Assembly: GCA_018238625.1 (NCBI GenBank)
Contig: JABCSY010000087.1
Span: 1-18,115, forward strand
DNA length: 18,115 nucleotides
Reading direction: 5' to 3'
Source of the DNA: Promethearchaeota archaeon
Lineage (GTDB): Archaea; Asgardarchaeota; Lokiarchaeia; Sigyniarchaeales; SOKP01
Shown here: positions 1 to 16,691 of the stretch, piece after piece
Layout of the letters: every line of letters starts with the position of its first letter
Position numbering within the stretch: position 1 is the first letter of the stretch
Position numbers and translations under genes: made by a program
Notes under the pieces: generated by a model
The model's input: the letters and a program-made list of their open reading frames with translations, nothing else
What the model was told of the DNA's origin: nothing
Database searches by the model: none

Positions 1-275
1 CCATTTTTCTTAAGTTTTTTTAACAAGGTTATGAATTCACGAGTTAATGATTCAATTTCTTGCTTTCGACCGTAATACTTAGTGTTTGTATCATTTTTGA
101 CAGGATTTGGACTGGATCGAAATCGATATCTTATCACTTCAGTCTTGTAATTGAAATAAGTTCGGAGTTGGCGTGAAAGTTCTTTTATTTTCCTTGCTCC
201 CTCAATTTCATACCAATCATTAAAAATACCATCATATTCTGATCTAAAATCAGAATCTTCAATATAATGCGTCAT
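1..275 (-). CDS. N-terminal fragment (truncated at window edge) of a probable archaeal/AAA-type P-loop ATPase
   Basis: Manual translation from ATG at 275 is open to the edge: MTHYIEDSDFRSEY...SPNPVKNDTNTKYYGRKQEIESLTREFITLLKKLKKNG. 'YYGRKQEIESL' resembles the F(V/Y)GRxxE(L/I) motif that precedes Walker A in archaeal/STAND-type ATPases. Walker A is not in the window. Confidence 0.5.
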   Translation of the reverse strand, partial: MTHYIEDSDFRSEYDGIFNDWYEIEGARKIKELSRQLRTYFNYKTEVIRYRFRSSPNPVKNDTNTKYYGRKQEIESLTREFITLLKKLKKN

Positions 276-373
276 AATTTATTATTTTAAATCTTTTATA
301 AGATAGACGCACTATTTGTATTTAAACAAAAAATGTTTTTTATGCTAATCTAAAGTTGAGTGCTAAAAGGATT

Positions 374-562
374 TTATAATCGTTCTTTTGAACCAATGGA
401 TAAAACTAATCTCTCAATCTCTTCAAAATTAATTTTTTTTTCTAAAATTTCTCCCATTTCTTGTAAATTGTTAAAACTTATACTTGAATCTGTATTATCT
501 TTACATGTACGCAATATCTTCTCTAACTCTTCTTTTCTCTTCTGCTTAATCTGTGCCACCAA
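374..562 (-). CDS. Possible small hypothetical protein (62 aa, charged, helical)
   Basis: Protein-like K/E-rich composition, co-oriented with the 1..275 gene, TTG/GTG start. No recognisable motif. Confidence 0.3.
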   Translation of the reverse strand: MVAQIKQKRKEELEKILRTCKDNTDSSISFNNLQEMGEILEKKINFEEIERLVLSIGSKERL

Positions 563-645
563 TATAAATGAGATGATATTATAATTAGATAATAAATCGA
601 TAAATGTAAATCCATAATATTTCGAATTGTATTTTAGGTCAAATC

Positions 646-659
646 GACAACCTTAAATG
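646..659 (+). promoter_or_regulatory. Candidate BRE+TATA for the methyltransferase-HgcA-like operon
   Basis: CGACAA-CCTTAAAT about 65 nt upstream of the start. AT-rich context weakens the call. Confidence 0.35.
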
Positions 660-719
660 TGAAATATTATTTTATATTTTGAATCTTCATAATATGAAAA
701 ATTAATTTGAAAAATTTGA

Positions 720-2393
720 TTGAAAATGGCTGTAGCTTTCATGCGTAAATTGGAGGAAGAACCAGAGACTTACGATTCGAAGTTTACTTCACTTACGAAA
801 GGAGTAAATGTTAAAGTTCATAATTGGGTATTGGATCAAATTCAATCAGATCAATCAATCTTAGAAATTGGGTCTGGAACGGGCTCATTAGCTTCAAAAA
901 TGGTTTCAAAAGGAAATGTTGTTGTTGCAATTGATAATAACATTCAAATGATTAATTTTGCTAAGCAAAAATACTCAGATACTTTAGAAAATGGTGCGCT
1001 ATTGTATCGATTAGCTTCATTTACGGATTTACCCGTTGAAAAAAGATCCGTAGATGTAATTGTCAGCACATTTCTATTATCAGAACTTCGACCGTTAGAG
1101 CAACAAATATTTCTTAGGAACGCTTGGAAAGCGTTAAAACCAAATGGTCGCTTGATATTAGCCGCAGAGTTTGTTCCATCAGGGTTTTGGAAGGTCAGTT
1201 TTAAAATAAAAAGGTGGTGGTTCAAAAAAAAACTGCGTCGCCTTCGTTTAAAAAGTACTTTTTTAGTTAAATGGTTTTTCAATTACATTGAACCAATAGG
1301 TTTTAGGATCGGAAACCAGAAGAAATGGAAGCACGGTTCAATTCAAGCAATTGAACTACTAAAAATTAACGATAACGGAGAAGACGAACCCGATTATTAT
1401 CGTCCCAAAACAAAGAAGTTTAAAGGAATTATTTCGCAATTGAGAATATATCGATGCCTTTTTACTGGACAGATAGATAGAGTTCCAATAGAACCAGGAA
1501 TATATAAATCTGGTAATCCCAATAACAACTCTCCTATTATCGTAACGGCAAATTACGAGTATACATACATAAAATTAATGCGCGATTTACAAGGTATTGA
1601 TGCGTGGGTTTTATGTTTGGATTCTAATGGAATTAACGTATGGTGCGCTGCTCGCGGAGATGATTTTGGCAACAAACAGCTACTAGAAGCCATTGAAGCA
1701 ACAGATATTCGAGTAATTTCAGAGAAAAAGACTTTAATTCTCCCCCAACTCTCAGCAGGAGGGGTTGCTGTACCTCAATTACCAGAAAAATTTCCTTTCA
1801 AAGTAAAATACGGTCCTGTTTGGTCAAAAGATCTAAAGCAATTTTTATCCGAGCGACCAGTCCGAAAACCAGATTCTATGAAACTTGCCAAATTTACTTT
1901 ATCTCATCGAATTCGCGCTGGAATCACGCACACTACCTTTTTATTCCGAAAAATCTTTTTAATTCCAATAATCGCAATTTTACTTTCGTTTTTCGCCTTA
2001 AATAATAATGCTATCATATGGTGGCTTGGAGAATTAGTAATATGGATCGTTTTGTCAAATGTAATAATATCGATCTTCTTTCCACTCTCTAAATTTAGCC
2101 GTAAATTTATTGTTAAAGCTATATTTTTTGGCTGTCTTAGCATATTTTTTATAGGGGCAATTTCTTGGATATTTCATAGTTCGTATCTTTATTTACTCTC
2201 GAACTTAGTTATATATTTCTGGATAACATTCTTTTCTACGATGTCTTTTAGCGGATACACGATGTCAACCAGTCCGAAAGAAATTCAAGCAGAATATCCT
2301 GTTTTTAGAAAAATAAATCTTACTCTAATAATTTTAGTCGTAATTCTATTAGGAATAAACATAATATTTTTTATGTTAAATATAATAAATTAA
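720..2393 (+). CDS. Fusion: class I SAM-dependent methyltransferase + HgcA-like (CdhD/CFeSP-family) corrinoid domain + ~5 TM helices (start TTG 720 or ATG 726)
   Basis: MTase motifs LEIGSGTG (861-884), VVAIDNN, DLP...VDVIVS, LKPNGRLILAAEF. HgcA-type motifs PIEPGIY..GNP..NSPIIVTANY, WVLCLDSNGINVWCAARG, LILPQLSAGGV, KYGPVWSKDL, then a hydrophobic C-terminus with SFSGYTMSTS..EI..E (cf. HgcA NFTGxxxxTS..GVxxE). Confidence 0.9.
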   Translation: MKMAVAFMRKLEEEPETYDSKFTSLTKGVNVKVHNWVLDQIQSDQSILEIGSGTGSLASKMVSKGNVVVAIDNNIQMINFAKQKYSDTLENGALLYRLASFTDLPVEKRSVDVIVSTFLLSELRPLEQQIFLRNAWKALKPNGRLILAAEFVPSGFWKVSFKIKRWWFKKKLRRLRLKSTFLVKWFFNYIEPIGFRIGNQKKWKHGSIQAIELLKINDNGEDEPDYYRPKTKKFKGIISQLRIYRCLFTGQIDRVPIEPGIYKSGNPNNNSPIIVTANYEYTYIKLMRDLQGIDAWVLCLDSNGINVWCAARGDDFGNKQLLEAIEATDIRVISEKKTLILPQLSAGGVAVPQLPEKFPFKVKYGPVWSKDLKQFLSERPVRKPDSMKLAKFTLSHRIRAGITHTTFLFRKIFLIPIIAILLSFFALNNNAIIWWLGELVIWIVLSNVIISIFFPLSKFSRKFIVKAIFFGCLSIFFIGAISWIFHSSYLYLLSNLVIYFWITFFSTMSFSGYTMSTSPKEIQAEYPVFRKINLTLIILVVILLGINIIFFMLNIIN

Positions 2394-2419
2394 AAAAAAA
2401 AATCATAAATTTGACGAAA

Positions 2420-2749
2420 ATGACAGAATCAAATCAAAATTCATGTTGTAGTGATGGTACTGATGCAGTACAAAATATCTTAAATGTTCTTGGGATTAGA
2501 ATTCTTATTAACGAACCGTTATGTATTGGTTGTGGACTATGTGGCGAAATATGCCCGTTTGGTTTACCCAAATCAAATGATAATGGAAAATACGAAATAA
2601 AGAATCCAGAACTCTGTACTGAATGTAGTGCTTGCCAAAGAAACTGCCCTACTCGCGCTATTATTATGCAAGAGCACGTAGGATGCGGATGTTTGTGGGA
2701 CTCACGACAACGAGCAAAAAGCAAAGGAAACAGTTGTAATTGCTCATAA
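2420..2749 (+). CDS. HgcB-like 2[4Fe-4S] ferredoxin with extra Cys pairs (alternative TTG start 2411)
   Basis: CIGCGLCGEICP and CTECSACQRNCP motifs, followed by AII...VGCGC (cf. HgcB CxECGAC..NCP..AI.V..GVGC). Directly downstream of the hgcA-like gene. Confidence 0.88.
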   Translation: MTESNQNSCCSDGTDAVQNILNVLGIRILINEPLCIGCGLCGEICPFGLPKSNDNGKYEIKNPELCTECSACQRNCPTRAIIMQEHVGCGCLWDSRQRAKSKGNSCNCS

Positions 2750-2780
2750 AAACAAATCTAAAGATCAAATTAGATTAAAA

Positions 2781-3071
2781 TTGATGAGAACTATGAAGCA
2801 ACAACACGATAGTAAATTAAAAGTAGATATATACGTTCCTTTAGACGCGTGTGCTTGTATATGGGACGATTTTATGAATCGGATGTTTGAAGTGCTTACT
2901 CCTTACATGAAAAATATTGACTACAATACAAAAAACTTAAACTCCGAAGAAGCTCGCAAATTAAAGCTATACGGAAATTGCGTTGTTGTTAATGGTAAAA
3001 TAAAATTTACTAGTTCCTACTTACTCAAAGATAAATTACCAAATTTACTTAAGGAAAAAGCTCTAATGTAG
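2781..3071 (+). CDS. Small thioredoxin-fold-like protein with CxC motif (ArsD/redox-disulfide-like)
   Basis: Beta strand KVDIYVP then ACAC, a helix, and C-terminal EEARKL...VVVNGKIKF resembling small Trx-like proteins of ars operons. The fold is inferred. Confidence 0.6.
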   Translation: MMRTMKQQHDSKLKVDIYVPLDACACIWDDFMNRMFEVLTPYMKNIDYNTKNLNSEEARKLKLYGNCVVVNGKIKFTSSYLLKDKLPNLLKEKALM

Positions 3072-3111
3072 ATTTTTATTTTAAAATAAATTTTGTAGAG
3101 GTTAAAAAAAA

Positions 3112-3468
3112 ATTAAAAAAATCAATTTTGAAATAAGCATACCAACTAAGGGACTACAACAAGGAAAAAAGTATACCGTTTACGTAAAAGATAACGCTTC
3201 TTTTATCGAAACCTTGGCGATGGTTGACAAATTAGAGATGGAAGTTCCTAAAGAATCAATTTTCCCTATAAATGAAGGGTACATTCACAATTATCTACAG
3301 CTGTTTGTAAATCTCGAAGAAAATTCTATATATGATGATGTCGGAATTTATGCATATGGTCCAGATGAAAATGGATTTATGCGTAGATTTAACCCAATTC
3401 GAGAAAACATAGAATTTAACCTGTATCCAGACAGTGTAATACAATTACAACCAGATGTTGGGTGCTGA
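3112..3468 (+). CDS. Probable beta-grasp (MoaD/ThiS/Ubl-like) protein ending in Gly-Cys; possible selenoprotein (ORF track start 3214)
   Basis: The frame is open from 3106 and GAGGT (3098-3102) lies 9 nt before ATT at 3112. Sequence (M)KKINFEISIP...KKYTVYVKDNASFIETLAMVD...LYPDSVIQLQPDVGC parallels the MoaD/SAMP pattern (...L.DGDxVxIxPPVxGG). Confidence 0.6.
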   Translation: MKKINFEISIPTKGLQQGKKYTVYVKDNASFIETLAMVDKLEMEVPKESIFPINEGYIHNYLQLFVNLEENSIYDDVGIYAYGPDENGFMRRFNPIRENIEFNLYPDSVIQLQPDVGC

Positions 3469-3576
3469 TGAGAAAAAGTGAAAAATAGACTCGATATCGG
3501 AAATTTTAAAACCTTCATTGGTAAAAAATACGGAAGAAATAACGAGTATTTTGCCCACTATTTTAAGAAATACGAA

Positions 3577-3633
3577 TCTTAATAATTTGGATGAGATCTT
3601 TCGTTAAATGAGAGTGAAAGATGGACATTAGGA
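3577..3633 (+). promoter_or_regulatory. SECIS-like RNA hairpin (eukaryote/Lokiarchaeota type)
   Basis: AUGA at 3591-3594; 10-bp helix 3596-3605/3613-3622; apical AAA at 3606-3608, 11 nt after AUGA; GA at 3624-3625; possible lower helix 3577-3583/3627-3633. Confidence 0.5.
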
Positions 3634-3697
3634 AGGCCTCCTAATATGAATGTGAAAATAAGCTAAATTAAGAGTGAAGAAGAGAGATGATGTAAGT

Positions 3698-4132
3698 TTG
3701 AACAAAACTAAATTAATTGTTCTTTGTACGGGAAATTCAGCGCGCAGTCAAATGGCAGAAGCCTTTTTAAGGAGATATGCGAGCAAGCGTTTTGATATCT
3801 ATAGTGCGGGATTTGTGATTAAAGGAGTTAATCCTTACACAATTAAAGTTATGGAGGAAATTGGCTATGATATGAGTAGCCACTACTCAAAATCGTTAAA
3901 TCAATATTTAGATAAAATTCATTTTAAAATTGTAATTACAGTCTGTTCAAAAGCGGAAGAAATGTGCCCAATCATTCCCGGTGTTGAAATTAAATTACAT
4001 TGGCCTTTTGAAGACCCAGCTTCGTTTGAGGGCACAGAGAAAGAAAAAATGCTCAAATTCAGAGAAATTAGAGATAAAATGCATGAGCATGTTAAATCAT
4101 GGTTAAAAGAAAGAGGAATTGTAAATAAATAA
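3698..4132 (+). CDS. arsC: Thioredoxin-coupled arsenate reductase (LMW-PTP fold); alternative GTG start 3674
   Basis: P-loop CTGNSARSQMAEA, resolving cysteines in TVCSKAEEMCP, HWPFEDP, FREIRD. Confidence 0.9.
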   Translation: MNKTKLIVLCTGNSARSQMAEAFLRRYASKRFDIYSAGFVIKGVNPYTIKVMEEIGYDMSSHYSKSLNQYLDKIHFKIVITVCSKAEEMCPIIPGVEIKLHWPFEDPASFEGTEKEKMLKFREIRDKMHEHVKSWLKERGIVNK

Positions 4133-4186
4133 TTTTCAAAATATGAAATTTAAAAAACTGATTTTAATTTTATAACTCGATATTAA

Positions 4187-5143
4187 ATGGATTTCTTCTC
4201 TCATTTTTTAATTGGAATATTAATTAGCATTTTCACTCTGAATAAATTGAGTTTTAGTATTGTTTTATATGCTGGTATGATGTCTGTTTTAGCTGACTTC
4301 GACATCATTTTTGAACCATTACAATTAATAAAAAAATCAAATCTTTTTGCACATAAAGGGATTTCACATTCTTTTTTTTTCGCGGCAATTATTTCCGCGA
4401 TTACAGGAAGCATATTTTCAATAATTACAGGAGAACTGTTTTTTCTAGCATGGTTAATCGGATTCTTATTTTATAGTATGCACAACATACTCGATTTTCT
4501 TACAGCTTCCAAAATTCCGATATTGTACCCTTTTTCAAAAAAAAGATATCGATTTTTTATAGATAGGGCAATAAATATTTTCTTAGCAGCTATATCTGGA
4601 AGTATTATTTTGTTTTACTTTATAATTTTCTTCCTCTGGCCAGAGTTATACTTTTCAAACTTGGTAATTTTTTTTTTAGGTTTCTACGTCGTGTATTTCA
4701 CTTATCGAATTTTAACCAAAATATGGGTCCAATTCAGATTACCTAAAAATATACATTTCATTCCAGGAATTCTTCCTTTCACTTATATGGTTTACGAAAA
4801 TAAGAAATCAGAGGAAACTATATCATTTAAACTTATTAAAAAATTCCAATTTCGTTCGAAGACTTCTCAATTAATAGAATCTGAAATAAAACTGTTTTCC
4901 AACGAAATGCAATTGTTTGAAAAAGCAGTTTTGTTAAGTAAGAAATATTCTTTTTTTTCCAAGTGGGAATTTATTATACCAGTCATCAAGAAAGACGAAA
5001 AAAACATCATTGTGATATTAATTTTAGCTGAAAGTTTCATGTCAGGTCATGTGTACTCTCTAAAAATTGTATTTGATTTAGTTAAAAATAAAATAGTTAA
5101 TGAGGTTGAAGGTTTCAATTATAGAGTAAAATCTAATAGCTAG
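4187..5143 (+). CDS. YdjM-like membrane-bound metal-dependent hydrolase with C-terminal soluble domain
   Basis: MDFFSH, LADFD, HKGISHS, MHNILD and ILYPFS motifs with multiple TM segments. Confidence 0.8.
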   Translation: MDFFSHFLIGILISIFTLNKLSFSIVLYAGMMSVLADFDIIFEPLQLIKKSNLFAHKGISHSFFFAAIISAITGSIFSIITGELFFLAWLIGFLFYSMHNILDFLTASKIPILYPFSKKRYRFFIDRAINIFLAAISGSIILFYFIIFFLWPELYFSNLVIFFLGFYVVYFTYRILTKIWVQFRLPKNIHFIPGILPFTYMVYENKKSEETISFKLIKKFQFRSKTSQLIESEIKLFSNEMQLFEKAVLLSKKYSFFSKWEFIIPVIKKDEKNIIVILILAESFMSGHVYSLKIVFDLVKNKIVNEVEGFNYRVKSNS

Positions 5144-5262: not shown

Positions 5263-6672
5263 CTATGCATTAAAAGTCCAGCCATCCCAAGGTTCCCCAG
5301 GTAACCCATTTGGAGTCTGATACGTTCCTGTCGCAAGGGAATTTGGATAAACTCCAAGTGGAAGATCTCCAGACGGAACAACAGCCTTAGTCCCGTTAGC
5401 TTGCCACTGAACGAATAATGTATACCCGTAAGGATACCCTTCTTGAATATCATGGCTTACTGTGAAAGCGGCCATTCCACCTGCTCCTTCAAGAGGGGTT
5501 GCTGTAGTAATTGTTTCAAGTGTAGAAACAATTGTATCGGCGTTAAAAGATTGAGATCCGTTAATTGCCCACGCATAAGCATATATAGCATCGTAACTAC
5601 CAACTGCCGTATACAATGGTTCGTGGTTGTACTTAGCAACAAACGCGTTCCAGAATGGAATTGACATTTCTGTTTTACTTGTATTATGTAACGCTTGTAA
5701 AGTTGTTTCGAAAGCACAATTTCCATTAGAATCGTCCCAGAACGTATCTAATTGAGCCTGAACGTCAACACCAACTACGACAAATCCTGGTTCAGCAGTA
5801 GCGTACGAATTCATCATGAGAATTCCTCCTTGCGCTGAAATTACGGGAATCAAAATCTGCGTAGCGTTACCATCAAGTTGGCTTATATATCCATCCATTT
5901 GCGTTTGGGTAACTGTAATCGGATAGGCGATCTCTGTAGCGAGAGTTAGACCGGGAACATAGTACGGTAGAGCAGCTTTCAACCCGTCTACTAAGGGGGT
6001 CGTCCAAGTTAAATCTTCGTAAAGCAGACTAAAACTGTTAATGTTTATCGAAGGATTAGTTGCATTTAAATAAGCTACTGTATATACTAAGAATTGGATT
6101 ATTTCAGCTCCTAAAGAGGACGAATTTATAGGCATATTTCTAAAGAAATATTTATACCTGTCGTAGTTGTCAAGAACATTTTGGCAGAAATCATCCGTTG
6201 CGGAGCCAGTATTAATAAAGGGAATTTTGGCGTCCATAATTACTTCTTGATAAGCTAGTAAAGATTCGGATCTAAACCCTCCAGTAAGGAATTGAGCCCT
6301 CTTATAACTAACAATTCTTTCTGCAGCAGCAACTCCTTTGGTTACATCTAAATTAGGGTTAGATTCGTCAGTATCTTCGGCTGTAATTCCAATGTAATAA
6401 GTTTTTCCGCCAACGGTAACTCCGCCTGCTTGGTTAATCTCGTAGGCTGCCAATTTTGCGCCCTCTAAAGCGCCTGCTCCTTGAATATCGGTTAATCCAC
6501 CAAGTACACCTACCCTGATGATCTGATCTTCTGTTAGTCCTGTTGGTGCCCCTGGGCAATCCTTAGATTCCCATTTATACGGCGAAACAAATATAAAGAC
6601 CGTAATACCAACCACGCTACCAATTACGACGATGAAAACGATAGCTAAAATTCTTTTGGTTAATGGTTCCAT
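5263..6672 (-). CDS. livK: ABC transporter substrate-binding protein, LivK/LivJ-like, N-terminally membrane anchored
   Basis: N-terminal TM helix; IRVGVLG...GAKLAAYEINQAGGV, EDT, GGFRSE, YDAIY; several N-x-S/T sequons; divergent from livHMGF. Confidence 0.88.
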   Translation of the reverse strand: MEPLTKRILAIVFIVVIGSVVGITVFIFVSPYKWESKDCPGAPTGLTEDQIIRVGVLGGLTDIQGAGALEGAKLAAYEINQAGGVTVGGKTYYIGITAEDTDESNPNLDVTKGVAAAERIVSYKRAQFLTGGFRSESLLAYQEVIMDAKIPFINTGSATDDFCQNVLDNYDRYKYFFRNMPINSSSLGAEIIQFLVYTVAYLNATNPSININSFSLLYEDLTWTTPLVDGLKAALPYYVPGLTLATEIAYPITVTQTQMDGYISQLDGNATQILIPVISAQGGILMMNSYATAEPGFVVVGVDVQAQLDTFWDDSNGNCAFETTLQALHNTSKTEMSIPFWNAFVAKYNHEPLYTAVGSYDAIYAYAWAINGSQSFNADTIVSTLETITTATPLEGAGGMAAFTVSHDIQEGYPYGYTLFVQWQANGTKAVVPSGDLPLGVYPNSLATGTYQTPNGLPGEPWDGWTFNA

Positions 6673-6849
6673 TTTTTAATCACTTTTTTGGATAAATTTT
6701 TGTTTAACACTATCTAATTCAGATAAACGTATATTTAAAGCTTTAGGCTTTTTAAAACATTTTGGGTAAAATGTTAGCAGAAACTATTGAGATTTATCTA
6801 ATTAGCATTTTGTTAAAAATTCCACAAATTCAAATCGTTCTTCGCCTAA

Positions 6850-6868
6850 GAAAAAGCTTTTTATATAA
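6850..6868 (+). promoter_or_regulatory. BRE+TATA candidate for livH operon in the divergent intergenic region
   Basis: GAAAAAGC-TTTTTATATAA. A second TTTATATAAA lies at 6951-6960, and a minus-strand TTTAAATA at 6739-6732 could serve livK. Confidence 0.45.
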
Positions 6869-6983
6869 TGAAGTAAAAATATTTTTAACTTAAATTAATT
6901 TAAATTATTAGCAATAATCAAGATCATATTTAGTAAAATAGTTATTTTAATTTATATAAATAATTTCTATTGTGTGGATATAA

Positions 6984-7856
6984 ATGATTGATAGTTTGAT
7001 AAACTTTCTAATTTTAGGCACTATTCAGGGTTCAATTTACGCGCTCCTTGCTATGGGTTTTTCGCTCGTCTATGGAGTTGGGGGTATTTTAAATCAAGGT
7101 CACGGCGCATTTTATTTAATTACATGTTATCTATTTTATTGGTTTTATAAAAATTTTGTAGGTTTTGGATTAATCGCTGGAATGGTTGTAGGATTGGTCG
7201 TTGTTACACTTGTGGGCGGTCTGGTGTATATACTTCTAGTCAAACCTCTGAAAGATAGTCATGTTGGTGTTGTAATTGTGACCTTTGCATTTGCATTTTT
7301 AATAGAACAAATTGTAAAAGTTTCAGTTGATTCGCTTTATCATGATATGCCACTCCTTATTGAAGGATCCTTTGATTTTTTTGGAGTAGATGTATTGAAC
7401 CATTATATTTTGGTAGTAGTAGCTTCTTTAGTAATTGTATCTTTAATTACATTAATTATTAACAAATCTAAAATTGGCAAGTCTATACGAGCAGTTGCGC
7501 AAGATGCCGAAGCAGCCTCTCTAATGGGGATCAATGTTGATAGAATACTTGCCTATACAGTTATGATTTCCGCTTTTCTTGCGGGGATAGCCGCTATTTT
7601 GTATGTCCCAATTGATATAGTTGCACCTCATATAGGGTGGGGCATATTAATTAATTCATTTGCTATAGTGGTCTTAGGTGGTTTAGGTAGTTTGCCAGGG
7701 AGCGTATTAGGGGCATTTATTATGTCTTACGCTAACGCTTTTGTTAATTTCGTTTTATTTATGCCAGAAATTAGTGCTTTAATACCGATAGTAGTAATAT
7801 TGTTTATGTTGGTTCTGAGACCAAGAGGATTATTTGGAAAAAAAGAAATTGATTAG
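6984..7856 (+). CDS. livH: Branched-chain amino acid-type ABC permease
   Basis: GSIYALLAMGFSLVYG...N..HG, GKSIRAVAQDAEAASLMGIN, VVLGGLGS, RPRGLFG. Confidence 0.93.
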   Translation: MIDSLINFLILGTIQGSIYALLAMGFSLVYGVGGILNQGHGAFYLITCYLFYWFYKNFVGFGLIAGMVVGLVVVTLVGGLVYILLVKPLKDSHVGVVIVTFAFAFLIEQIVKVSVDSLYHDMPLLIEGSFDFFGVDVLNHYILVVVASLVIVSLITLIINKSKIGKSIRAVAQDAEAASLMGINVDRILAYTVMISAFLAGIAAILYVPIDIVAPHIGWGILINSFAIVVLGGLGSLPGSVLGAFIMSYANAFVNFVLFMPEISALIPIVVILFMLVLRPRGLFGKKEID

Positions 7857-7889
7857 TATAATTTGAACATCAATCGAGGATTAAAGAAT

Positions 7890-8921
7890 ATGATAATATT
7901 AAAAAAAAAAATAGCTGATTTTGCATCCAATTTTCCGAGTTATATGAGAGATTGGATTTCAACTTTCAGAGCGAAATTGACTATAGTTTGTTTGGTTGGA
8001 CTTTGCCTTGTTCCTTTATTAACTCAAAACGCCTACTTCTTAGGGATTTTTACAACTTTTATGATATTTACCATCTTTGCTGCGAGTTGGGATTTTTTAG
8101 CGGGTTTTGTAGGACAAGTTAGTTTTGGGCAAGCAGTATTTTTAGGTGTTTCGGGGTATGTTACAGCCTATCTAATACGATATTTAAGTTTTCCATGGTG
8201 GATATCTCTCGTGATTGGTTCTATTAGCGCGGTTATTTTTGGATTGATTATTGGAATTCCAGCTCTAAGGTTAAAAGGTCCTTATTTGGCCTTAGGTACT
8301 CTTGCTATGAGTCTAATAATGTATCAGTTATTTCTGATGGGATCATTAGCAACTATGTGGGAAGATGCGTTTGGAACACTCCTATTTGGTGCTGAAGGCG
8401 TTTCGCAGGTTCCACCTATTTCTCCTAATAAAATTGTAGAATATTTTGCAATATTCCTAATAATGAGCGTATCTTTATTAGTTTTAACTCATATAACTAA
8501 ATCTAATGTAGGTACGATTTTTAAAGCAATCAGAGATGATGAGACTGGTACAAGTGCTTCAGGAATAAATACTACCAAATACAAAATTTTGGCGTTTATG
8601 ATCAGTGGATTGTTCGCAGGAATAGCCGGTGGTCTTTTTGCTATGCGTTTTAGAGCAGTAAATCCCGGGATTTTTCAACCGTTATACTCATTTTACGCTA
8701 TTATCATCGCAGCTATGGGTGGTATAGCTACTATTTCTGGTTCAGCTATAGGTGCATTCATTTTTATTTTTCTTGGGGAAATTCTAAGAGAAACGCAAGA
8801 CCTATCGCTATTGATTTTCAGCGTCATATTAATATTATTCATAAGATTTGCAGAACACGGACTTTTAAAACCCACATTAGAACGCATTCAAGAATTGTGG
8901 GATATTCTATTAGGAAGGTAA
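7890..8921 (+). CDS. livM: Branched-chain amino acid-type ABC permease (alternative TTG start 7863)
   Basis: GFVGQVSFGQAVF, LRLKGPYLAL.TL, AIRDDE...ASGIN, FAGIAGGL, AMGG. Confidence 0.93.
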   Translation: MIILKKKIADFASNFPSYMRDWISTFRAKLTIVCLVGLCLVPLLTQNAYFLGIFTTFMIFTIFAASWDFLAGFVGQVSFGQAVFLGVSGYVTAYLIRYLSFPWWISLVIGSISAVIFGLIIGIPALRLKGPYLALGTLAMSLIMYQLFLMGSLATMWEDAFGTLLFGAEGVSQVPPISPNKIVEYFAIFLIMSVSLLVLTHITKSNVGTIFKAIRDDETGTSASGINTTKYKILAFMISGLFAGIAGGLFAMRFRAVNPGIFQPLYSFYAIIIAAMGGIATISGSAIGAFIFIFLGEILRETQDLSLLIFSVILILFIRFAEHGLLKPTLERIQELWDILLGR

Positions 8922-8967
8922 CATAAATAAAATAATTTGTAAAAATTAAATTTTGGAGATTTTTAAA

Positions 8968-9711
8968 ATGGGAGTGATTTTAGAAGTAAAAAATTTAACA
9001 AAAAAATTTAGTGGTTTAACAGCTGTTAACGATTTTAGTTTTGAAGTGAGACGGGGCGAATTTACAGGCTTAATAGGTCCAAATGGCGCTGGAAAAACTA
9101 CATTATTTAACTTGATCTCAGGACATGAAAAACCCAGTTCTGGAACAATTAGGTTCGATGGGCGTGATATTACGGGGATGAAACCTCATCAAATTGTTAA
9201 TTTGGGGATCGCTAGAACTTTTCAACTTGTAAGATCGTTTAGATTTATGACACTTTTGGATAACATTTCAGTATCTTGCCTTTCACCAAGAGGAAAAAAA
9301 GTAGCTAAAGAATATGGGATAGACGAATACGCCAGTTCTATTTTAGCTGCAGTTGGCCTCGTTGACAAAGCAAGAATACCTCCCATAATATTACCTCATG
9401 GCGATTTGAGAAAATTGCAAATAGGAAAAGCATTAGGCACTAATCCCCAATTACTTCTTTTAGATGAGCCATTTAGTGGGCTTTCTCACGAAGAACAAAA
9501 GGGTATAACAGATTTGATAATAAAATTGCATGATGATGGAGTAACTGTTTTTATGACGGGACATGTTTTACGAGAATTAATGCACCTAGTGCCTAGAGTC
9601 GTTGCTATGCACCAAGGTAAATATATAACCGAAGGCCCTCCACAAGAGGTTGCAAATAACAAAATTGTGTTAGAAGCGTATTTAGGAAAAGGAAGTGAAC
9701 AACTTGCTTGA
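8968..9711 (+). CDS. livG: ABC ATP-binding protein (alternative TTG start 8953)
   Basis: GPNGAGKTT, GIARTFQ, LLLLDEP, EAYLG. Confidence 0.93.
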   Translation: MGVILEVKNLTKKFSGLTAVNDFSFEVRRGEFTGLIGPNGAGKTTLFNLISGHEKPSSGTIRFDGRDITGMKPHQIVNLGIARTFQLVRSFRFMTLLDNISVSCLSPRGKKVAKEYGIDEYASSILAAVGLVDKARIPPIILPHGDLRKLQIGKALGTNPQLLLLDEPFSGLSHEEQKGITDLIIKLHDDGVTVFMTGHVLRELMHLVPRVVAMHQGKYITEGPPQEVANNKIVLEAYLGKGSEQLA

Positions 9712-10408
9712 AATGAGAAAAATATATCATTATTATGGAAAAGCTAGAGCTCTCGAAGAGATTAACTTAACGATTGAAGATAGAGCTCTGGATGCCGTTA
9801 TCGGTCCTAACGGAGCGGGAAAATCAACTCTTCTCAGAGTTATATCTGGATTAGAAGAACCAGATAGAGGAAAAATTGAATTTTTGGGAGAAAGAATTGA
9901 CGGCTTAAAAGCTCATAAAATCGCCAAAAAAGGAATAGCTCATTGTCCCGAGCGCCGGCGCTTATTTTACGATATGAGCGTAATGGAAAACCTAGAAATG
10001 GGGGCATATACATTAAAAAATAAAAAAAAGTTTCGTGAGTTATTAGATTTTGTGTTTGAAGTTTTCCCTCGTCTTAAAGAAAGGAAAAAACAAAGAGCAG
10101 GAACGTTGAGTGGAGGCGAACAACAAATGCTCGCAATCGGTCGTGCAATTATGGCAAATCCAAAATTACTTCTATTAGATGAACCTTCGTTGGGTTTAGC
10201 TCCTAAAATAAAGGATAGAATATTTGATGCAGTAAATACGATTAAAAAAGGGGGAACTACAACCTTATTAGTTGAACAAGATGCCATATTAGCAATGGAA
10301 GTTGGTGAAAACATACATCTATTGGAAGAAGGTAAAATAGAAATGAGGGGTACAAAAGAACAGTTAGAAAAAGAACCTCGAATTAAAAAAGTCTATCTAG
10401 GAATATAG
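9695..10408 (+). CDS. livF: ABC ATP-binding protein
   Basis: GPNGAGKST, PERRRLF, FPRLKER..QRAGTLSGGEQQM, LLDEPSLGLAP, LVEQ. Overlaps the end of livG. Confidence 0.95.
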   Translation: MNNLLEMRKIYHYYGKARALEEINLTIEDRALDAVIGPNGAGKSTLLRVISGLEEPDRGKIEFLGERIDGLKAHKIAKKGIAHCPERRRLFYDMSVMENLEMGAYTLKNKKKFRELLDFVFEVFPRLKERKKQRAGTLSGGEQQMLAIGRAIMANPKLLLLDEPSLGLAPKIKDRIFDAVNTIKKGGTTTLLVEQDAILAMEVGENIHLLEEGKIEMRGTKEQLEKEPRIKKVYLGI

Positions 10409-13642: not shown

Positions 13643-14245
13643 ATGAATATTATGAATGACGACGAAATGCTTTCAGCTGTAAGAACATTCGCATATAATA
13701 ATTCTGAAAAAGACGATCTCCATGGCTTTAAACATGTTGGGCGAGTACTTAATTTATGTGTACAAATTGGGACTGCTTTAAATGCGAATTTATTGATAAT
13801 TAAAATAGCTGCCTTACTTCACGATGTTGGTAGAATTCATGAGAAAAAAAATGATGCAAAGAATCACGCTGAAATATCCGCTGAAATGGCTGAAAAATTT
13901 TTACAAAAAACTAACTTCAACATTACTCTTGACAATATTGAAAATATCCTTCACAGCATTCGAGCACATTCTTTTTCGAATAACATAAAACCTAAAACTC
14001 TTGAAGCAAAAATATTATCGGACGCAGATAAACTGGATGCGCTTGGAGCAATAGGTTTATACAGAACAATTATATATTCATTTAAATTGAAAAATGGTGG
14101 AATAGAGAAAGTAATTGAACATTTAGAAAACAAAATCTTGAAATTAAAGGATGGATTGTACTTAGAAGGCTCTAAACAAATCGCAGAAGAGAGAAGTAAA
14201 ATAATTGTAGATTTTTATGATAAAATAAGAGAAGAAATAATGTAG
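13643..14245 (+). CDS. HD-domain metal-dependent phosphohydrolase
   Basis: HGFKHV.RV, AALLHDVGR, HAEIS, AHSF, DADKLDALGAIG. Confidence 0.9.
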   Translation: MNIMNDDEMLSAVRTFAYNNSEKDDLHGFKHVGRVLNLCVQIGTALNANLLIIKIAALLHDVGRIHEKKNDAKNHAEISAEMAEKFLQKTNFNITLDNIENILHSIRAHSFSNNIKPKTLEAKILSDADKLDALGAIGLYRTIIYSFKLKNGGIEKVIEHLENKILKLKDGLYLEGSKQIAEERSKIIVDFYDKIREEIM

Positions 14246-14256
14246 ATAATGACGAT

Positions 14257-15498
14257 TTACTTGAGTTTCAATATCATGCTCAAAAGAATTGGAAATTTCT
14301 CTTCTGTGCCCCAGATGACGTAAATTTTGTCGTCAATAGGAATCGCGACGTGCTTAGCAAGAGTAATCCAACCACTTCCAACATTCTTAGCCGCATCGCT
14401 TCCCGCTTTAAATCTCAAATACATAATGGCTCCTAAGTAATCTTGGATTTCTATGTCTTCAACTTTGATATCTTCTAAATCTTGAATAATATATTCTTTA
14501 TTTTCTTTATCAGGTTGTAAACTATTCCAAATTTTCTCGTACGACAATTGTAAAGCTGCCCGAATCACAATCTTATTTTCTATAAGCCTATCGTATTCCA
14601 AAATTATAAGACCGCAATCTTTATCTACACCTCTTATTCCAAGCGTGTTAAAGTCGTACGATTTTTCGCCATAGGCCTGAAAGTCTTTTTTAGCTTCAAC
14701 AATATCAATCCATCCATTTTCAAGATCCTCACCCATTATATACCGAAAACTTTTTAATATATTTAATTCTTCCTCCCTATCTTGAATAATCTCATCGATT
14801 AAAGCATTTAGTGGCCTTGCTACATATATTTGTATCCCGCTTGGAGTTCTTGATACCTTTTCTACCCAATAATTTTTAACTAAACGATCAATTATTCGAT
14901 ATATTGTAGTTCTTTTGATTTCCAGTTCTTTATTTATATTTCCAATTTTATCTCCTTTCTCTCCTTTTTTCAACAAAGCTAAATAAACTCTAGCCTCTTC
15001 TAAGCTTAAACCTGCTTTTAGTAAGCCTAATCTTTGCAAATTTTGGGTTTCATCGAGCAAAACTTTTGGAGTGGACCACTTTATTTCCTCAACTTTTCCT
15101 AAAGGCGTATCAGGTTCTAAATAAGGTTTTTTTGATCTAAATTTTCCTAAAGTTCTTGATGCTTCCATTAGCCCCAGATGGATCTGTCCTTCAGGTTCAA
15201 TTTTACAAATAATTTTTCGTTCTTCTTCTTTAAACCCAATAACGCTCCCCTTCTTATCTAAAGTACTAGCAACAAGCCTCTCAGTAGAAATTTGAAGAAT
15301 TATATACTTAATTCCAGAAATAGTGATATATCTCTCATCTAAATTTCGCCAAGTCGTGTTTATGGTTTCTATATCGCCACTAATATCCCAATTATCTGAT
15401 GAATATACAATCTTATTTTCATCTTCAATAATAGCTGTTGATATTATCTTAGAGTCGTGTTTTAAATATTTATCAAGAATAGATATGTATTTTTCCAT
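14257..15498 (-). CDS. Profilin-like domain + TrmB-type winged HTH + unknown C-terminal domain
   Basis: aa 1-~122: TAIIEDENKIVYSSDNWDI...ITISGIKYIILQISTERLVAS...KGSVIG (Asgard profilin pattern). aa ~155-250: GLSLEEARVYLALL...INKELEIKRTTIYRIIDRL..YWVE...IYVARP (TrmB HTH pattern). Confidence 0.8.
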   Translation of the reverse strand: MEKYISILDKYLKHDSKIISTAIIEDENKIVYSSDNWDISGDIETINTTWRNLDERYITISGIKYIILQISTERLVASTLDKKGSVIGFKEEERKIICKIEPEGQIHLGLMEASRTLGKFRSKKPYLEPDTPLGKVEEIKWSTPKVLLDETQNLQRLGLLKAGLSLEEARVYLALLKKGEKGDKIGNINKELEIKRTTIYRIIDRLVKNYWVEKVSRTPSGIQIYVARPLNALIDEIIQDREEELNILKSFRYIMGEDLENGWIDIVEAKKDFQAYGEKSYDFNTLGIRGVDKDCGLIILEYDRLIENKIVIRAALQLSYEKIWNSLQPDKENKEYIIQDLEDIKVEDIEIQDYLGAIMYLRFKAGSDAAKNVGSGWITLAKHVAIPIDDKIYVIWGTEEKFPILLSMILKLK

Positions 15499-15542
15499 TA
15501 TTTTATTACAACCTCTTCTTCATATATTTGTTTTATTTTATT

Positions 15543-15553
15543 AAAAAAAAAAA
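15543..15553 (-). terminator. Oligo-T (T11) tract after actin
   Basis: A11 on the + strand, starting 20 nt past the actin stop. Confidence 0.45.
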
Positions 15554-15572
15554 TTAATTATGTTTTAAAAGT

Positions 15573-16691
15573 TTAAAAACATCGATGGATTACCCCTGGT
15601 CCAATCTCTTTGTATTCACGGCGCGTTATCCACATTCTGCTAAATGTTTTCAGAGAACTTAATATTGAGCCGCCAATCCAAACAGAATACATTCTTTCAG
15701 GAGGAGAAAGTATTCTAACATCGATCGATTCTGGAACCAATTCTTTTATTTCTTTTGTTAAACGCTCTTTAATACCAGGAAACATAGTAGACCCTCCTGA
15801 AAGAACAATGTTACTGTAAAGATCTCGCCTTAGGTCTACATCACATTCAGAAATGGCATCTACAAGGATATTATCTAAAGGATCTAATTCCTTTCCTAAT
15901 ACTGATGGATTAAAAAAGCTTTCTGGTGCTAAAAATCTTTCAATTCCTACATTGATAACCTCTCCATCGGGTAGCATAAAACTTTTCTCCATTCCAGAAA
16001 CTTTCTTTGAGAGAATCATTTCTTTTTCTGGATCAGTGGCTACATAGCATAGCTTCTCCTTAACATCTCTTACAATTTCTTTTTCAGCCGAGGATGTAAA
16101 GGAATATCCCTTTTGCCTTAATAATCTCTGCAAATAATTCGTTACATCTCGACCCGCAAGATCAACTCTCTGAATTGCGTGACTTAAAGCAAAACCTTCA
16201 AAAATCGGTACGATATGAGACACCCCATCTCCAATGTCTATTACACAACCTGTAGTCCTCCCAGAAGCGTACAGCGATAAAATAGCCTGAGTTGCAATGT
16301 AAAGTGCTGGTACATTAAAAGTCTCAAACATAATTTCCGCTATTTTTTCTCGATTCATTCTAGGATTTAAGGGTGCTTCCGTTAACAATACAGGATGCTC
16401 AGAAGGATCAATTCTAAGATCGGTGTAGAAAGTGTAATGCCAAATTTTCTCCATAGCGGGCCAGTCCTCAACAATTCCATGCTCTATAGGAAACATTAAT
16501 CGCATCAGACCTTTTAATTGCATAGCTTCTTCACCAATGTAAAAATCCCGTGAATAATGCCTTACATCTGGTAAAACAACGCCATATTTTGGTTCGCCAA
16601 TTACCGTTGGAAAAACAGAACGAGGTTGGTCTTCTCCAGCATATCCATTCTTAGATATCCCCGTACCATTATCTAAAACAACTGGCTTCAA
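15573..16691 (-). CDS. Asgard actin (Lokiactin-like); true start may be ATT at 16712
   Basis: [99 protein letters not shown]-terminus. Confidence 0.97.

Follow-up and report, generated by a model that had tools for sequence, protein, structure and literature searches.

Results

Six co-oriented genes and a SECIS element

A survey of open reading frames in the window, that is, the whole 18,115-nt stretch of DNA analysed here, confirmed six co-oriented genes on the + strand between positions 720 and 5143, as the initial annotation had described. The features of the locus, each with the evidence that identifies it, are as follows:

590..666, + strand: copy of the arsR-acr3 intergenic block, promoter/operator-like (blastn, alignment A3)
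726..2393 (ORF opens at 720), + strand: SAM methyltransferase (CpaM-like)::HgcA-like fusion, corrinoid domain of Cys-on type (Pfam, NCBIfam)
2411..2749, + strand: HgcB-like 2x[4Fe-4S] ferredoxin (Pfam, NCBIfam)
2781/2784..3071, + strand: CxC thioredoxin-fold protein (AlphaFold2, Foldseek)
3112..3582, + strand: predicted selenoprotein, 156 codons (TGA TGA read as Sec-Sec, conserved frame)
3591..3644, + strand: eukaryote-like SECIS, type I (covarying helix, model fit)
3674..4132, + strand: ArsC, thioredoxin-coupled, low-molecular-weight phosphatase type (PF01451, TIGR02691)
4187..5143, + strand: YdjM-family membrane hydrolase (PF04307)

Once the selenoprotein and the SECIS element had been placed, the intergenic gaps came to 17-115 nt, and the one long gap of the cluster was filled by the SECIS element. 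The locus was compared with 60 related species loci, all from one order or class (order-level loci), and with 20 loci from distant Asgard classes. The gene order shared among relatives is partly a matter of common ancestry.

A methyltransferase fused to an HgcA-like corrinoid protein

The first gene had been taken for a methyltransferase joined to an HgcA-like protein, and domain searches agreed: Pfam placed Methyltransf_11 at aa 48-147 and CdhD (PF03599) at aa 236-346, a SAM motif is present in the methyltransferase domain, and the protein carries a multi-pass membrane anchor. The frame opens at TTG 720, and a start at ATG 726 agrees with a 555-aa database entry. The best NCBIfam match of residues 6-211 was CpaM (139.5 bits, cut-off 180), while HgcA (180 bits, cut-off 275) and HgcAB_like (179 bits, cut-off 285) tied for the corrinoid part. 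Because the protein lies below the cut-offs of all three families, knowledge of their members cannot safely be transferred to it. We found 782 homologues, and every one of the 120 listed has the fused SAM-binding methyltransferase domain, with lengths of 518-578 aa; the gene is present in 201 of 400 Asgard genomes.

The ferredoxin gene that follows (2411-2749, start probably at ATG 2420) encodes two clusters, a conserved GCGCLW motif and a C-terminal CxC/CC tail. HgcB was its best family (54.5 bits, cut-off 99), which upholds the HgcB-like assignment made earlier, though below the family threshold. It follows the fusion gene in 60/60 order-level and 20/20 distant-class loci (80/80 in total).

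These two proteins match HgcA and HgcB (NF040863 and NF040864) in several respects: the corrinoid domain is PF03599, its cap-helix Cys sits within NVWCA, the membrane domain is C-terminal, and the neighbouring gene encodes a two-cluster ferredoxin whose tail is rich in Cys. In a comparison with canonical HgcA, cap-helix residues N306, W308, C309, A310 and F316 were invariant. However, canonical HgcA has GK after the cap helix where the fusion has RG, the fusion reaches 180 bits against the cut-off of 275 where 44 scanned canonical representatives lie at 342-470, and the fusion carries a SAM methyltransferase domain at its N-terminus. The tail of the ferredoxin here is CxC. The pairing of these two kinds of domain is also seen with CpaM and HgcAB_like, and the phrase "corrinoid protein-associated methyltransferase", NCBIfam's name for CpaM, appeared in none of the papers searched. 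In fused HgcAB the ferredoxin is joined to the corrinoid protein, whereas here the methyltransferase is joined instead. It has been reported, in the accessible portion of Lin et al. 2023 (PMC10083202), that Asgard sequences fall in the fused-HgcAB subtree. According to the accessible text of PMC4646819, the fused P. furiosus HgcAB did not produce methylmercury, and this inactivity on mercury leaves the paralogue group, as far as that text goes, without a known activity.

The fusion also shares with ArsM a class I SAM methyltransferase fold, an ars operon setting and the same proposed product. The initial annotation had argued that it is not an ArsM and that its methyltransferase domain is free of Cys, and both points held. 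There is no Cys before residue ~246, so that the domain lacks the As(III)-binding Cys site of ArsM, and ArsM models match it only generically (39-40 bits, cut-offs 263-575). No ArsM was found in this genome at cut-off, the best match being 57.5 bits against 263. In contrast to ArsM, methyl transfer here would pass through a corrinoid; we know of no precedent for a class I methyltransferase that charges a corrinoid.

A Cys-Sec-Sec selenoprotein and a thioredoxin-fold partner

The fourth gene had been read as a beta-grasp-like carrier with a Gly-Cys terminus, encoded by an ORF at 3214-3468. This terminus was rejected: TGA TGA at 3466-3471 encodes Sec-Sec, a conserved tail lies beyond it, and the earlier ORF is the middle part of a Cys-Sec-Sec selenoprotein. 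The Sec-Sec reading adds 36 codons, so that the frame ends at TAA 3580-3582, and 36 conserved N-terminal residues moved the start to ATT 3112, an AUU start being found in most copies. Judged by its conserved frame, the small protein at 3112-3582 is a selenoprotein of 156 codons with a Cys-Sec-Sec motif.

TGA TGA and the conserved tail are present in all 45 aligned rows. Among the 43 rows with in-frame TGA TGA plus 30 further codons, 32 were distinct, and the frame after TGA was open in 31/32 of these, as against 2/32 and 0/32 for the other two frames. The tail after Gly-Cys-Sec-Sec is basic, conserved and 36 residues long. Three types of the protein were distinguished: A (G-C-U-U), B (U-U with a type-specific Cys) and C (U-G-U-U). 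Searches of Pfam, NCBIfam and the PDB gave no relatives by sequence, and a model of the shortened 82-residue form had a pLDDT of 54.7. Sec machinery is encoded in the genome, including SepSecS (479.9 bits) and a pair of SelD genes that contain in-frame TGA. MoaD, ThiS and SAMP are examples of beta-grasp sulfur carriers and ubiquitin-like proteins, and thioredoxin reductase has a redox-active Gly-Cys-Sec-Gly arm. The selenoprotein resembles these carriers and this arm in being small with a flexible reactive motif after Gly; unlike the carriers, it has no Gly-Gly end, and its motif is internal, with the 36-residue tail after it.

Downstream of the stop codon, the SECIS element consists of AUGA (3591-3594), a 7-bp helix (3596-3602 with 3616-3622) closed by an A-rich 13-nt loop, GA (3624-3625) and a second hairpin (3628-3632 with 3640-3644). 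Our script detected it after 31/32 distinct gene copies; in the first helix 210/210 cells pair and 4/7 pairs change on both sides, and 0/500 shuffles matched the observed scores. A comparison with Rfam gave no match; the element fits the type I model in the accessible part of PMC11227280. That source (Huang et al. 2024) describes Asgard selenoproteins with eukaryote-like SECIS elements (SelD, FrhA, HdrA, FrhD, a Prx-like protein and two more), and the portion available shows UGA decoding, an AUGA_GA type I 3'-UTR element, a 7-bp upper stem and an A-rich 13-14-nt loop, the same as here. What sets the present protein apart from them is two adjacent Sec after Cys, a mostly AUU start and an arsenic operon. 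The family is not among the seven in the accessible main text of PMC11227280. The selenoprotein is not previously described; neither it nor the arsenic-operon fusion is mentioned in the papers searched.

The third gene had been called a CxC thioredoxin-like protein. No family in Pfam or NCBIfam covered it, and its AlphaFold2 model (pLDDT 91.2) has a thioredoxin fold, with thioredoxins as top Foldseek hits (probability 1.0, E about 4e-3). C21 and C23, invariant in 15 sequences, occupy the position of the thioredoxin CxxC, which bears out the earlier reading. Its 89 homologues are all hypothetical proteins and come from Asgard archaea only. Neither small protein was seen in the distant-class loci (0/20 each), and in the order-level loci the CxC protein occurs in 28/60 and the selenoprotein in 26/60.

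The cluster in its arsenic operon context

The initial annotation had proposed a synteny analysis across Asgard genomes. When run, it showed an order conserved far beyond chance, and individual genes are unevenly kept. Upstream of the fusion gene we found arsR in 33/60 order-level loci, acr3 in 29/60 and either in 37/60, covering two families of the order, and in most loci that have these ars genes the fusion gene lies directly after acr3. ArsR/SmtB scored 70 bits (cut-off 55) and ACR3 269-281 bits, the best full-length match reaching 281 against a cut-off of 282.8. In the same genome, arsR-acr3 lies on contig C101; synteny with two close relatives (97% and 88% identity) places this contig next to the start of the window, and the contig of the window begins within an inserted module. 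Thus the earlier statement that no arsenite efflux gene is present is correct for the window but not for the operon.

A block of ~75 nt from between arsR and acr3 has a second copy 54-130 nt upstream of the fusion gene (590-666), as seen by comparison with the arsR-acr3 intergenic regions of C101 and of two other loci (L001, L002). The 20-mer at 639-658 is single-copy in the window and occurs exactly twice in the 4.29-Mb genome, the other copy being C101:4703-4722. The block is a candidate duplicated promoter/operator-like element. The full operon would run from arsR and acr3 through a two-gene insertion, specific to this clade, to the six genes. On sequence grounds, the six genes form the distal end of an arsenic-resistance operon, and the suspected arsenic link of the cluster is supported by both the upstream ArsR/SmtB and ACR3 genes and the duplicated block. 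Classical ars operons likewise have arsR, acr3 and a thioredoxin-coupled arsC; here, in contrast, four to five extra genes separate the pump from arsC, and arsC is optional. Linkage of hgcAB to ArsR-like regulators and ars genes has been published, in the portions of the literature accessible here. Our preferred reading, to which we give a probability of roughly 40%, is that the cluster forms the distal half of an ArsR-controlled, metalloid-methylating arsenic operon of Loki-type Asgard archaea, and it suggests a new candidate route for methylating arsenic-like elements.

Not every fusion-ferredoxin pair is accompanied by ars genes: they are missing in a MarR-linked clade (12 tree rows; MarR upstream in 11/60 loci) and at 16/20 distant-class loci, and the other 4/20 have an ArsR-like gene alone upstream, without acr3. 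These last loci would suit a module that naturally acts on a different soft element (Sb(III), Hg(II), Se or Te), with a broad ArsR/SmtB sensor and shared export. The nearest characterised relative, the top NCBIfam match HgcA, methylates Hg(II); members of the ArsR/SmtB family sense many metals, and the CVC site and N-terminal CxCxxC of this genome's own ArsR could suit several; the affinity of selenols for Hg, Sb and Te is no lower than for As. We nevertheless consider this unlikely, since ACR3 and ArsC act specifically on arsenic and antimony, no mer genes were seen in any clustered locus, the cap helix has changed from GK to RG, and the fusion falls 95 bits short of the HgcA cut-off.

Selenolates are excellent methyl acceptors, and the acceptor might instead be a selenol or thiol, either Sec of the selenoprotein or a small Se/S compound, in selenium handling or SAM/SAH overflow with the ArsR-like protein as SAH sensor. 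An ArsR homologue of ND132 also responds to SAH, according to the accessible part of its published description, and DUF166, a family with selenoprotein members, is in the operon of many relatives (NF041372, 41 bits). However, the selenoprotein is absent from roughly half of the loci with the fusion gene, the linkage to acr3 and arsC is left unexplained, and the promoter block that was duplicated belongs to the arsenite pump gene; we regard a selenol or thiol acceptor as very unlikely.

A proposed route of metalloid methylation

In the preferred arsenic-methylating reading, the methyltransferase domain may pass the methyl group of SAM to the cob(I)amide that the HgcA-like domain ligates through Cys, the HgcB-like ferredoxin would return oxidised cobalt to Co(I), and the methyl group would then be transferred at the membrane to As(III) or a similar metalloid. 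The three neighbouring chalcogens of Cys-Sec-Sec may hold the substrate or keep it reduced, with help from the CxC protein. ArsC, where present, would supply As(III) from As(V).

The identification of arsC (3674-4132, start GTG 3674 or TTG 3698) as the thioredoxin type proved sound, with PF01451 at 66.7 bits, TIGR02691 at 136.3 bits (under the cut-off of 174.3), and a conserved CX5R loop and later Cys pair. Intact ArsC was found at 6/60 species loci, in three separate clades and at two positions. As such a minority accessory it cannot be the obligatory first step of the pathway, as the initial annotation had implied. In two loci (L126, L127) ArsC comes right after the CxC protein, as a reductase and its thiol partner would. 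This arrangement, together with the likeness of Gly-Cys-Sec-Sec to the Gly-Cys-Sec-Gly arm of thioredoxin reductase, would fit a module that serves redox chemistry or detoxification in place of arsenic methylation, perhaps by demethylating methylarsenicals onto the corrinoid or by reducing pentavalent arsenicals with the Cys-Sec-Sec arm, the CxC protein and ArsC. Corrinoid proteins are also able to take up methyl groups, and anaerobes, to our knowledge, lack the oxygen-dependent C-As lyase. Such a module is quite unlikely in our estimate, as the fused SAM domain in all 120 homologues listed points to methyl donation and not removal, and the fusion-ferredoxin pair is the universal core whereas the redox accessories are optional.

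The last gene (4187-5143), expected to encode a membrane hydrolase, belongs to the YdjM type (PF04307, 65.5 bits, cut-off 29), with invariant H6, D37, D39, H56, H61, H99 and D103 and an extra C-terminal domain of ~140 residues. It accompanies the Gly-Cys-Sec-Sec form of the selenoprotein in 15/15 assessable loci and in the window, and other forms alone in 0/9; in the arsenic-methylating reading, the hydrolase would partner this form. The genes might instead be neighbours by descent that form no functional unit, the fusion-ferredoxin pair being a housekeeping pair unrelated to arsenic. The 60 loci all belong to a single order or class, and relatives have gene order in common; further downstream, synteny extends to the Liv transporter, HD, TrmB and actin genes as well, and the pair occurs in other contexts. 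This view is very improbable, because the ars promoter block was retained before the fusion gene after an insertion split acr3 off, ArsC joined the cluster at two positions in three clades, the spacers are short with the SECIS element occupying the one long gap, and ancestry alone does not easily explain why YdjM keeps strictly to one form of the selenoprotein (15/15 versus 0/9).

Six co-oriented genes are partly conserved across Asgard archaea

Six + strand ORFs lie within 720-5143, in the arrangement that the initial annotation had described, on an entire contig (C47) of a 4.29 Mb assembly of 201 contigs that is 97.9% complete and 7.6% contaminated. The first of these joins a methyltransferase domain to an HgcA-like corrinoid protein, and we refer to it together with the ferredoxin gene that follows as the core pair.

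Features of the window
720/726-2393, + strand: fusion gene; class I SAM methyltransferase (Methyltransf_11, aa 48-147), PF03599 corrinoid domain (aa 236-346) and hydrophobic C-terminal third
2411-2749, + strand: two-cluster ferredoxin; best family HgcB (NF040864), 54.5 bits, missing the cut-off of 99
2781-3071, + strand: CxC protein ORF, without a family match
3214-3468, + strand: small-protein ORF in the standard reading, without a family match
3674-4132, + strand: thioredoxin-type ArsC; TIGR02691, 136.3 bits, missing the cut-off of 174.3
4187-5143, + strand: YdjM; PF04307, 65.5 bits against a gathering score of 29
15573-16691: actin (E 1.7e-127)

When the small gene is placed as a selenoprotein gene together with its SECIS element, the spacers of the cluster measure 17, 34, 40, 91-115 (SECIS inside) and 54 nt.

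Comparison with other genomes demonstrated that the gene order is conserved. In 18 Asgard loci the ferredoxin gene follows the fusion gene wherever sequence extends beyond it (16 of 16), and the CxC gene comes next in 14 of 14. We then counted by tblastn in 60 further loci, one per species of the same order or class, selected by the length of their contigs. The synteny expected at the outset held in full for the ferredoxin gene (60/60) and in part for the CxC gene (28/60, one of them 4 kb away), the selenoprotein gene (26/60), YdjM (16/60) and ArsC (6/60 intact, plus one fragment in locus L095). ArsC lies between the small-protein gene and YdjM in four loci and directly after the CxC gene in L126 and L127, with a second copy in L126; the ArsC-bearing loci fall in three separate clades of a quick maximum-likelihood tree with SH-aLRT support only. 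In 20 loci of distant Asgard classes only the core pair is kept (20/20).

Our main reading of the cluster, drawn from its sequence and gene context, is methylation of arsenic or another metalloid, to which we assign a probability of about 0.4. The optional nature of the accessory genes argues against it, as does the fact that the gene order is shared among kin; a set of neighbours with no functional unity is one of the rivals that share the remaining probability.

The cluster is embedded in arsR-acr3 operons

To define the gene neighbourhood, all ORFs of the 60 loci were clustered and representatives scanned. Directly upstream of the fusion gene and co-oriented with it we found the gene of a full-length ACR3 arsenite pump (TIGR00832, 281 bits, just under the cut-off of 282.8), preceded by a divergent ArsR/SmtB regulator (NF033788, 70.4 bits against 55). 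The regulator gene is present in 33 of the 60 loci, acr3 in 29 and either of them in 37, which bears out the arsenic link suggested initially. Of 27 loci whose CxC gene was clustered, 25 have one or the other, the linkage occurs in two families of the order, and an ArsR-like gene stands just upstream of the fusion gene in 4 of the 20 distant-class loci. Asgard MAGs were reported in one survey to carry acr3 and arsM and to lack arsC (PMC10060404).

In the source genome itself arsR-acr3 is found on another contig, C101. The related locus L001 matches C101:5258-553 (97.3%, 4707 bases), then, about 40 bases on, window 6-288, and then window 591-2724, and L002 does likewise. Because these matches span C101 and then the window, the two contigs very probably adjoin, which leaves about 3.4 kb from the end of acr3 to the fusion gene. 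The earlier statement that the window holds no arsenite efflux gene is thus correct for the window itself, whereas on this synteny an arsR-acr3 pair very probably lies next to it. Between acr3 and the fusion gene are two overlapping minus-strand genes, of 869 and 204 aa in L001, which form an inserted module of the window's clade (window 1-590, C101:553-3670, L001:3583-6803); the assembly breaks inside this module, and window 3-275 carries the first part of the 204-aa gene. Neither inserted gene had a Pfam or PADLOC match. One metagenome contig (sequencing run X1) skips window 286-590.

Window 590-666 holds a second copy of a block of about 75 nt from the arsR-acr3 intergenic region, oriented to the fusion gene as the block there is to acr3. 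The genome contains exactly two copies of a 20-mer within it (639-658). A third copy of the 20-mer, with 3 mismatches on contig C152, was discounted as it lies between convergent genes and at control level. We read the block as a retained putative ars promoter/operator.

Not every copy is in this setting, and the occurrence of the core pair without ars genes speaks against metalloid methylation. In a derived paralogous clade (12 tree rows, L114-L121 and L139-L142; 11 of the 60 loci) a MarR gene stands upstream of the fusion gene and ars genes are absent. ArsR-type sensors, moreover, are not limited to arsenic, a further point against our reading; some other soft element as the substrate is a second rival within the remaining probability. 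According to published work, hgcAB is under ArsR control and responds to arsenic and to SAH, and an hgcAB knockout is sensitive to As(V) (bioRxiv 10.1101/2022.10.17.512643); by analogy, these findings point the same way as the metalloid methylation reading.

Several variations on these neighbourhoods were seen. In the MarR-linked clade the neighbours include gelsolin-repeat, cupin and MFS genes, and many genomes hold both paralogous copies. Loci L088, L092, L094, L097 and L098 have arsR before the core pair without acr3 and two flavin-reductase-like genes after it, and two of these five also encode a further methyltransferase as a separate protein, akin to the N-terminal domain of the fusion protein. 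Many related operons have two extra Cys-rich genes near arsR-acr3 (for example L089:642-1373 and L095:448-696): a DUF166 protein with 7 Cys between arsR and acr3, weakly matching the DUF166 (seleno)protein DfsP family, and a DUF2769 protein with 8 Cys beyond arsR.

The fusion protein belongs to a third group beside HgcA and fused HgcAB

Of 8000 candidates scored, 782 proteins matched the fusion protein at E <= 0.001. The best 120 of these are 518-578 aa long and share 62-94% identity with the query (one, at 100%, is the window's own protein), and in each of the 120 both domain types are present and joined. Named sources among the 120 are Loki-, Hod-, Hermod- and Odin-labelled MAGs, and the annotation is 'methyltransferase domain-containing protein'. 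At E <= 1e-20 the fusion protein was matched in 201 of 400 Asgard genomes, including 109 of 134 in its own family and 46 of 90 high-quality genomes, and other Asgard classes contain full-length relatives with 30-35% identity.

Family models did not place the protein in an established group. It scores 180 bits on the HgcA model NF040863, below the curated NCBIfam cut-off of 275, and 179 bits on the HgcAB-like fusion model NF043039, missing the cut-off of 285 with a match that ends at profile position 276 of 350; that family needs a C-terminally fused ferredoxin, whereas here the ferredoxin is encoded by a separate gene. Residues 6-211 match CpaM ('corrinoid protein-associated methyltransferase', NF043040) at 139.5 bits, short of the cut-off of 180. 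Both CpaM and the HgcAB-like fusion are already named families in NCBIfam. The methyltransferase domain carries the SAM-binding glycine-rich motif EIGSGTG inside its Methyltransf_11 match. The initial annotation had held that this domain contains no Cys and is not an ArsM; its sequence confirms the first point, and ArsM identity was rejected since the ArsM models match only generically and Cys is absent.

A phmmer search with the HgcA-like part returned 970 proteins, and 54 representatives were scanned. There were 44 canonical HgcA sequences (342-470 bits on NF040863), one HgcAB-like sequence (336 bits), nine methyltransferase-fused sequences and two others of 443-447 aa. The nine fused sequences and the two others, which lack a CpaM match, fall below both cut-offs like the window protein; one fused representative, P0242, exceeds the CpaM cut-off (211.5 bits). 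In an alignment of 14 sequences, 6 of them canonical HgcA, residues N306, W308, C309, A310 and F316 of the cap helix are invariant, and the cobalt-ligand Cys is present in its NVWCA context. After this motif 6 of the 7 aligned methyltransferase-fused sequences have RG(D/G/N) and the seventh, P0252, has GGG, in contrast to GK in the 6 canonical HgcA. True HgcA identity was rejected, as both the cut-off and the Gly-Lys motif are missed. Since the methyltransferase-fused proteins lie below both cut-offs and keep the cap-helix Cys, the fusion protein is, on sequence criteria, a third group beside HgcA and fused HgcAB, with a predicted cobalt-ligating Cys retained.

Asgard sequences were previously placed in the fused-HgcAB subtree in an analysis that removed the first 327 alignment columns (Lin et al. 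2023, PMC10083202). The fused Pyrococcus furiosus protein, described as the sole tested member of that neighbouring fused group, was reported to make no methylmercury (PMC4646819). A non-methylating redox or demethylation role is a third rival sharing the remaining probability.

The small gene encodes a selenoprotein with three chalcogen forms

TGA TGA at 3466-3471 ends the standard ORF of the small protein, and reading both codons as Sec adds 36 codons up to a TAA at 3580-3582. All 45 rows compared (43 with in-frame TGA TGA plus 30 further codons; 32 distinct) show TGA TGA and, after it, a basic tail that is conserved. The 30 codons are free of stops in 31 of the 32 distinct copies, the exception having one extra TGA, while the remaining frames stay open in just 2/32 and 0/32. 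Tail residues K133, G141, H149, Y150 and F151 are invariant. The Gly-Cys terminus first proposed for this protein was therefore rejected: the TGA TGA is read through, with a conserved tail beyond and a SECIS element after it. In one lineage (L085 and L002) a third in-frame TGA occurs in the tail where Gly stands elsewhere; it may encode another Sec, or reflect a polymorphism or an error.

At the 5' end, 36 more upstream residues are conserved in all copies. The codon equivalent to the start is ATT in 20 of 34 distinct copies, ATG in 4, ATA in 2, GTT in 2, AAA in 5 and TTT in 1, a distribution that suggests conservation of AUU as a non-canonical start. In many copies a stop stands 1-3 codons before this position, and a GGAGG/GGTGA-like motif lies 6-10 nt upstream (window region 3094-3114). 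On the basis of these residues, stops and motif we set the gene at 3112-3582, 156 codons.

Alignment of 19 of the 33 distinct full-length copies distinguished three forms: A, Gly-Cys-Sec-Sec; B, His-Ala-Asp-Sec-Sec with a Cys about 40 residues earlier that is absent from form A; and C, Sec-Gly-Sec-Sec. Each form keeps three chalcogens. YdjM stands beside form A in all 15 loci with enough sequence, and in the window (the sequence of L122 ends too early to judge), and is missing from all 9 assessable loci having form B or C only; in L127 it is present and the selenoprotein gene was undetected. The full-length selenoprotein had no Pfam or NCBIfam relative and no hit at E <= 10 in a full-length profile search of PDB, and its middle part has 108 homologues, all Asgard 'hypothetical proteins'. 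An AlphaFold2 model of the 82-residue standard ORF, about half of the 156 residues, was too poor to use (pLDDT 54.7), and an Atlas search with these 82 residues gave nothing recognisable (recognition 1680). Unlike MoaD/ThiS/ubiquitin-like beta-grasp carriers, which end in Gly-Gly, the selenoprotein lacks a C-terminal Gly-Gly. Selenium or sulfur methylation is a fourth rival that shares in the remaining probability.

Directly 3' of the stop lies a conserved element composed of AUGA, a 7-bp helix, an A-rich loop of 13-14 nt, GA and a second hairpin. It was detected by script after 31 of the 32 distinct copies, and the 32nd (L103) has the same letters. In an alignment of 30 of the 31 copies, omitting L126 because the segment taken from it was out of register, helix 1 was paired in 210 of 210 cells with both-side changes in 4 of 7 pairs; none of 500 shuffles reached the observed scores, and slid partners paired in 47-62% of cells. 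The element fits the eukaryote-like type I SECIS model of Asgard archaea, which has an AUGA_GA core, a stem of 7-15 bp and a loop of 8-20 nt (PMC11227280). The main text of that study gives seven Asgard selenoprotein families, found by homology, none resembling the Cys-Sec-Sec protein, and neither arsenic nor ubiquitin-like proteins come up there. An Rfam search of window 3000-4300 gave no SECIS match, and a SECIS covariance model (R1) run on the whole genome recovered only its own locus, apart from one hit ascribed to chance within an ABC ATPase gene.

The genome encodes SepSecS (479.9 bits against a cut-off of 224.85) and two side-by-side SelD genes with one in-frame TGA each (C148:29888-32282). 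A simple type I SECIS scan after the two selD genes found nothing; selD SECIS elements are reportedly of type II. For tRNA-Sec the best score in the 201-contig assembly was 35.7 against a cut-off of 47, and aragorn reported none. Aragorn did call an intron-containing tRNA with anticodon CTA ('tRNA-Pyl', C177:10050-10153), which may be spurious because only 19 tRNAs were found in the whole assembly.

The remaining cluster proteins retain conserved cysteines and other candidate functional residues

In the ferredoxin both CX2CX2CX3C cluster motifs are invariant; the tail reads C-x-C-(S/G) or C-C among order-level copies, and C-C among those of distant classes. For the CxC protein, which had no Pfam match even at E <= 10 and whose 89 homologues are all from Asgard archaea, the predicted structure (pLDDT 91.2) has elements in the order beta-alpha-beta-alpha-beta-beta-alpha of the thioredoxin fold, and its best Foldseek/PDB matches are all thioredoxins (prob 1.0, TM about 0.6). 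The modelled fold agrees with the thioredoxin likeness noted initially; the CxxC active site is absent, and C-x-C (C21, C23) is invariant in 15 of 15 sequences.

The presence of arsC was likewise upheld, at a score below the cut-off: the match covers 126 of 129 profile positions, and the CX5R loop reads CTGNSARS in 6 of the 7 copies covering the region (CTENSVRS in L006; L004 is truncated). The later Cys pair, seven residues apart in VC..AE..CP, is kept in 8 of 8 copies. In YdjM, residues 1-171 match 169 of 176 positions of PF04307, and His and Asp residues are kept.

A candidate route to metalloid methylation

Taken together, the gene identities, the selenoprotein with its SECIS element, the conserved order and the embedding in arsR-acr3 operons lead us to propose the following mechanism for metalloid methylation. 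SAM would charge the Cys-ligated cobamide through the fused methyltransferase domain, and the ferredoxin would reactivate the cobamide. The acceptor of the methyl group would be As(III) or a similar metalloid, which the Cys-Sec-Sec site and the CxC protein would hold or keep reduced, and ArsC would be an optional feeder. We consider it unlikely that the most specific version is correct in all its parts, namely an ArsM-independent Asgard pathway in which a membrane HgcA-like cobamide enzyme, SAM-charged by its fused domain, methylates As(III) brought on the selenoprotein Cys-Sec-Sec, arsenic being the ancestral HgcAB chemistry.

The native role of the HgcAB family and the source of its corrinoid methyl group are long-standing questions. 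The fusion names SAM as a candidate donor and the operon names arsenic as a candidate substrate, and with the gene set in 201 of 400 Asgard genomes the role of HgcAB becomes directly testable. If the specific version were true, the ancestral job of the family would be arsenic chemistry and not mercury. Should the proposed route operate, anaerobic sediments would harbour a second enzymology of arsenic methylation overlooked by arsM-based surveys, and hgcA-based surveys would have to exclude the methyltransferase-fused paralogues. Independently of the methylation reading, the few selenoprotein families recognised in Asgard archaea gain one more with the Cys-Sec-Sec protein, which has a eukaryote-like SECIS and, in most copies, an AUU start. 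In the literature searched we found no description of the fusion, its Asgard ars context or the selenoprotein; the supplements of PMC11227280 and PMC10083202, outside that search, may list the genes. Apparently new here are the layout of the six genes, the association of YdjM with form A, the distinction of three chalcogen forms, the start at AUU, the second copy of the promoter block and the adjacency of the two contigs.

Flanking genes

Sequencing run X20, marked 'RNA?' but probably DNA, yielded only short contigs, 90-95% alike. Downstream of the cluster, window 5263-10408 encodes an ABC transporter of the Liv type (a binding protein with two permeases and two ATPases), which also follows the cluster in 14 of the 60 related loci, the strand of the binding-protein gene varying among lineages. 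Window 13643-16691 carries HD-domain, TrmB-type regulator and actin genes, and several relatives, L089 and L127 among them, keep the order of these genes close to the cluster, which points to long-range synteny in the group.
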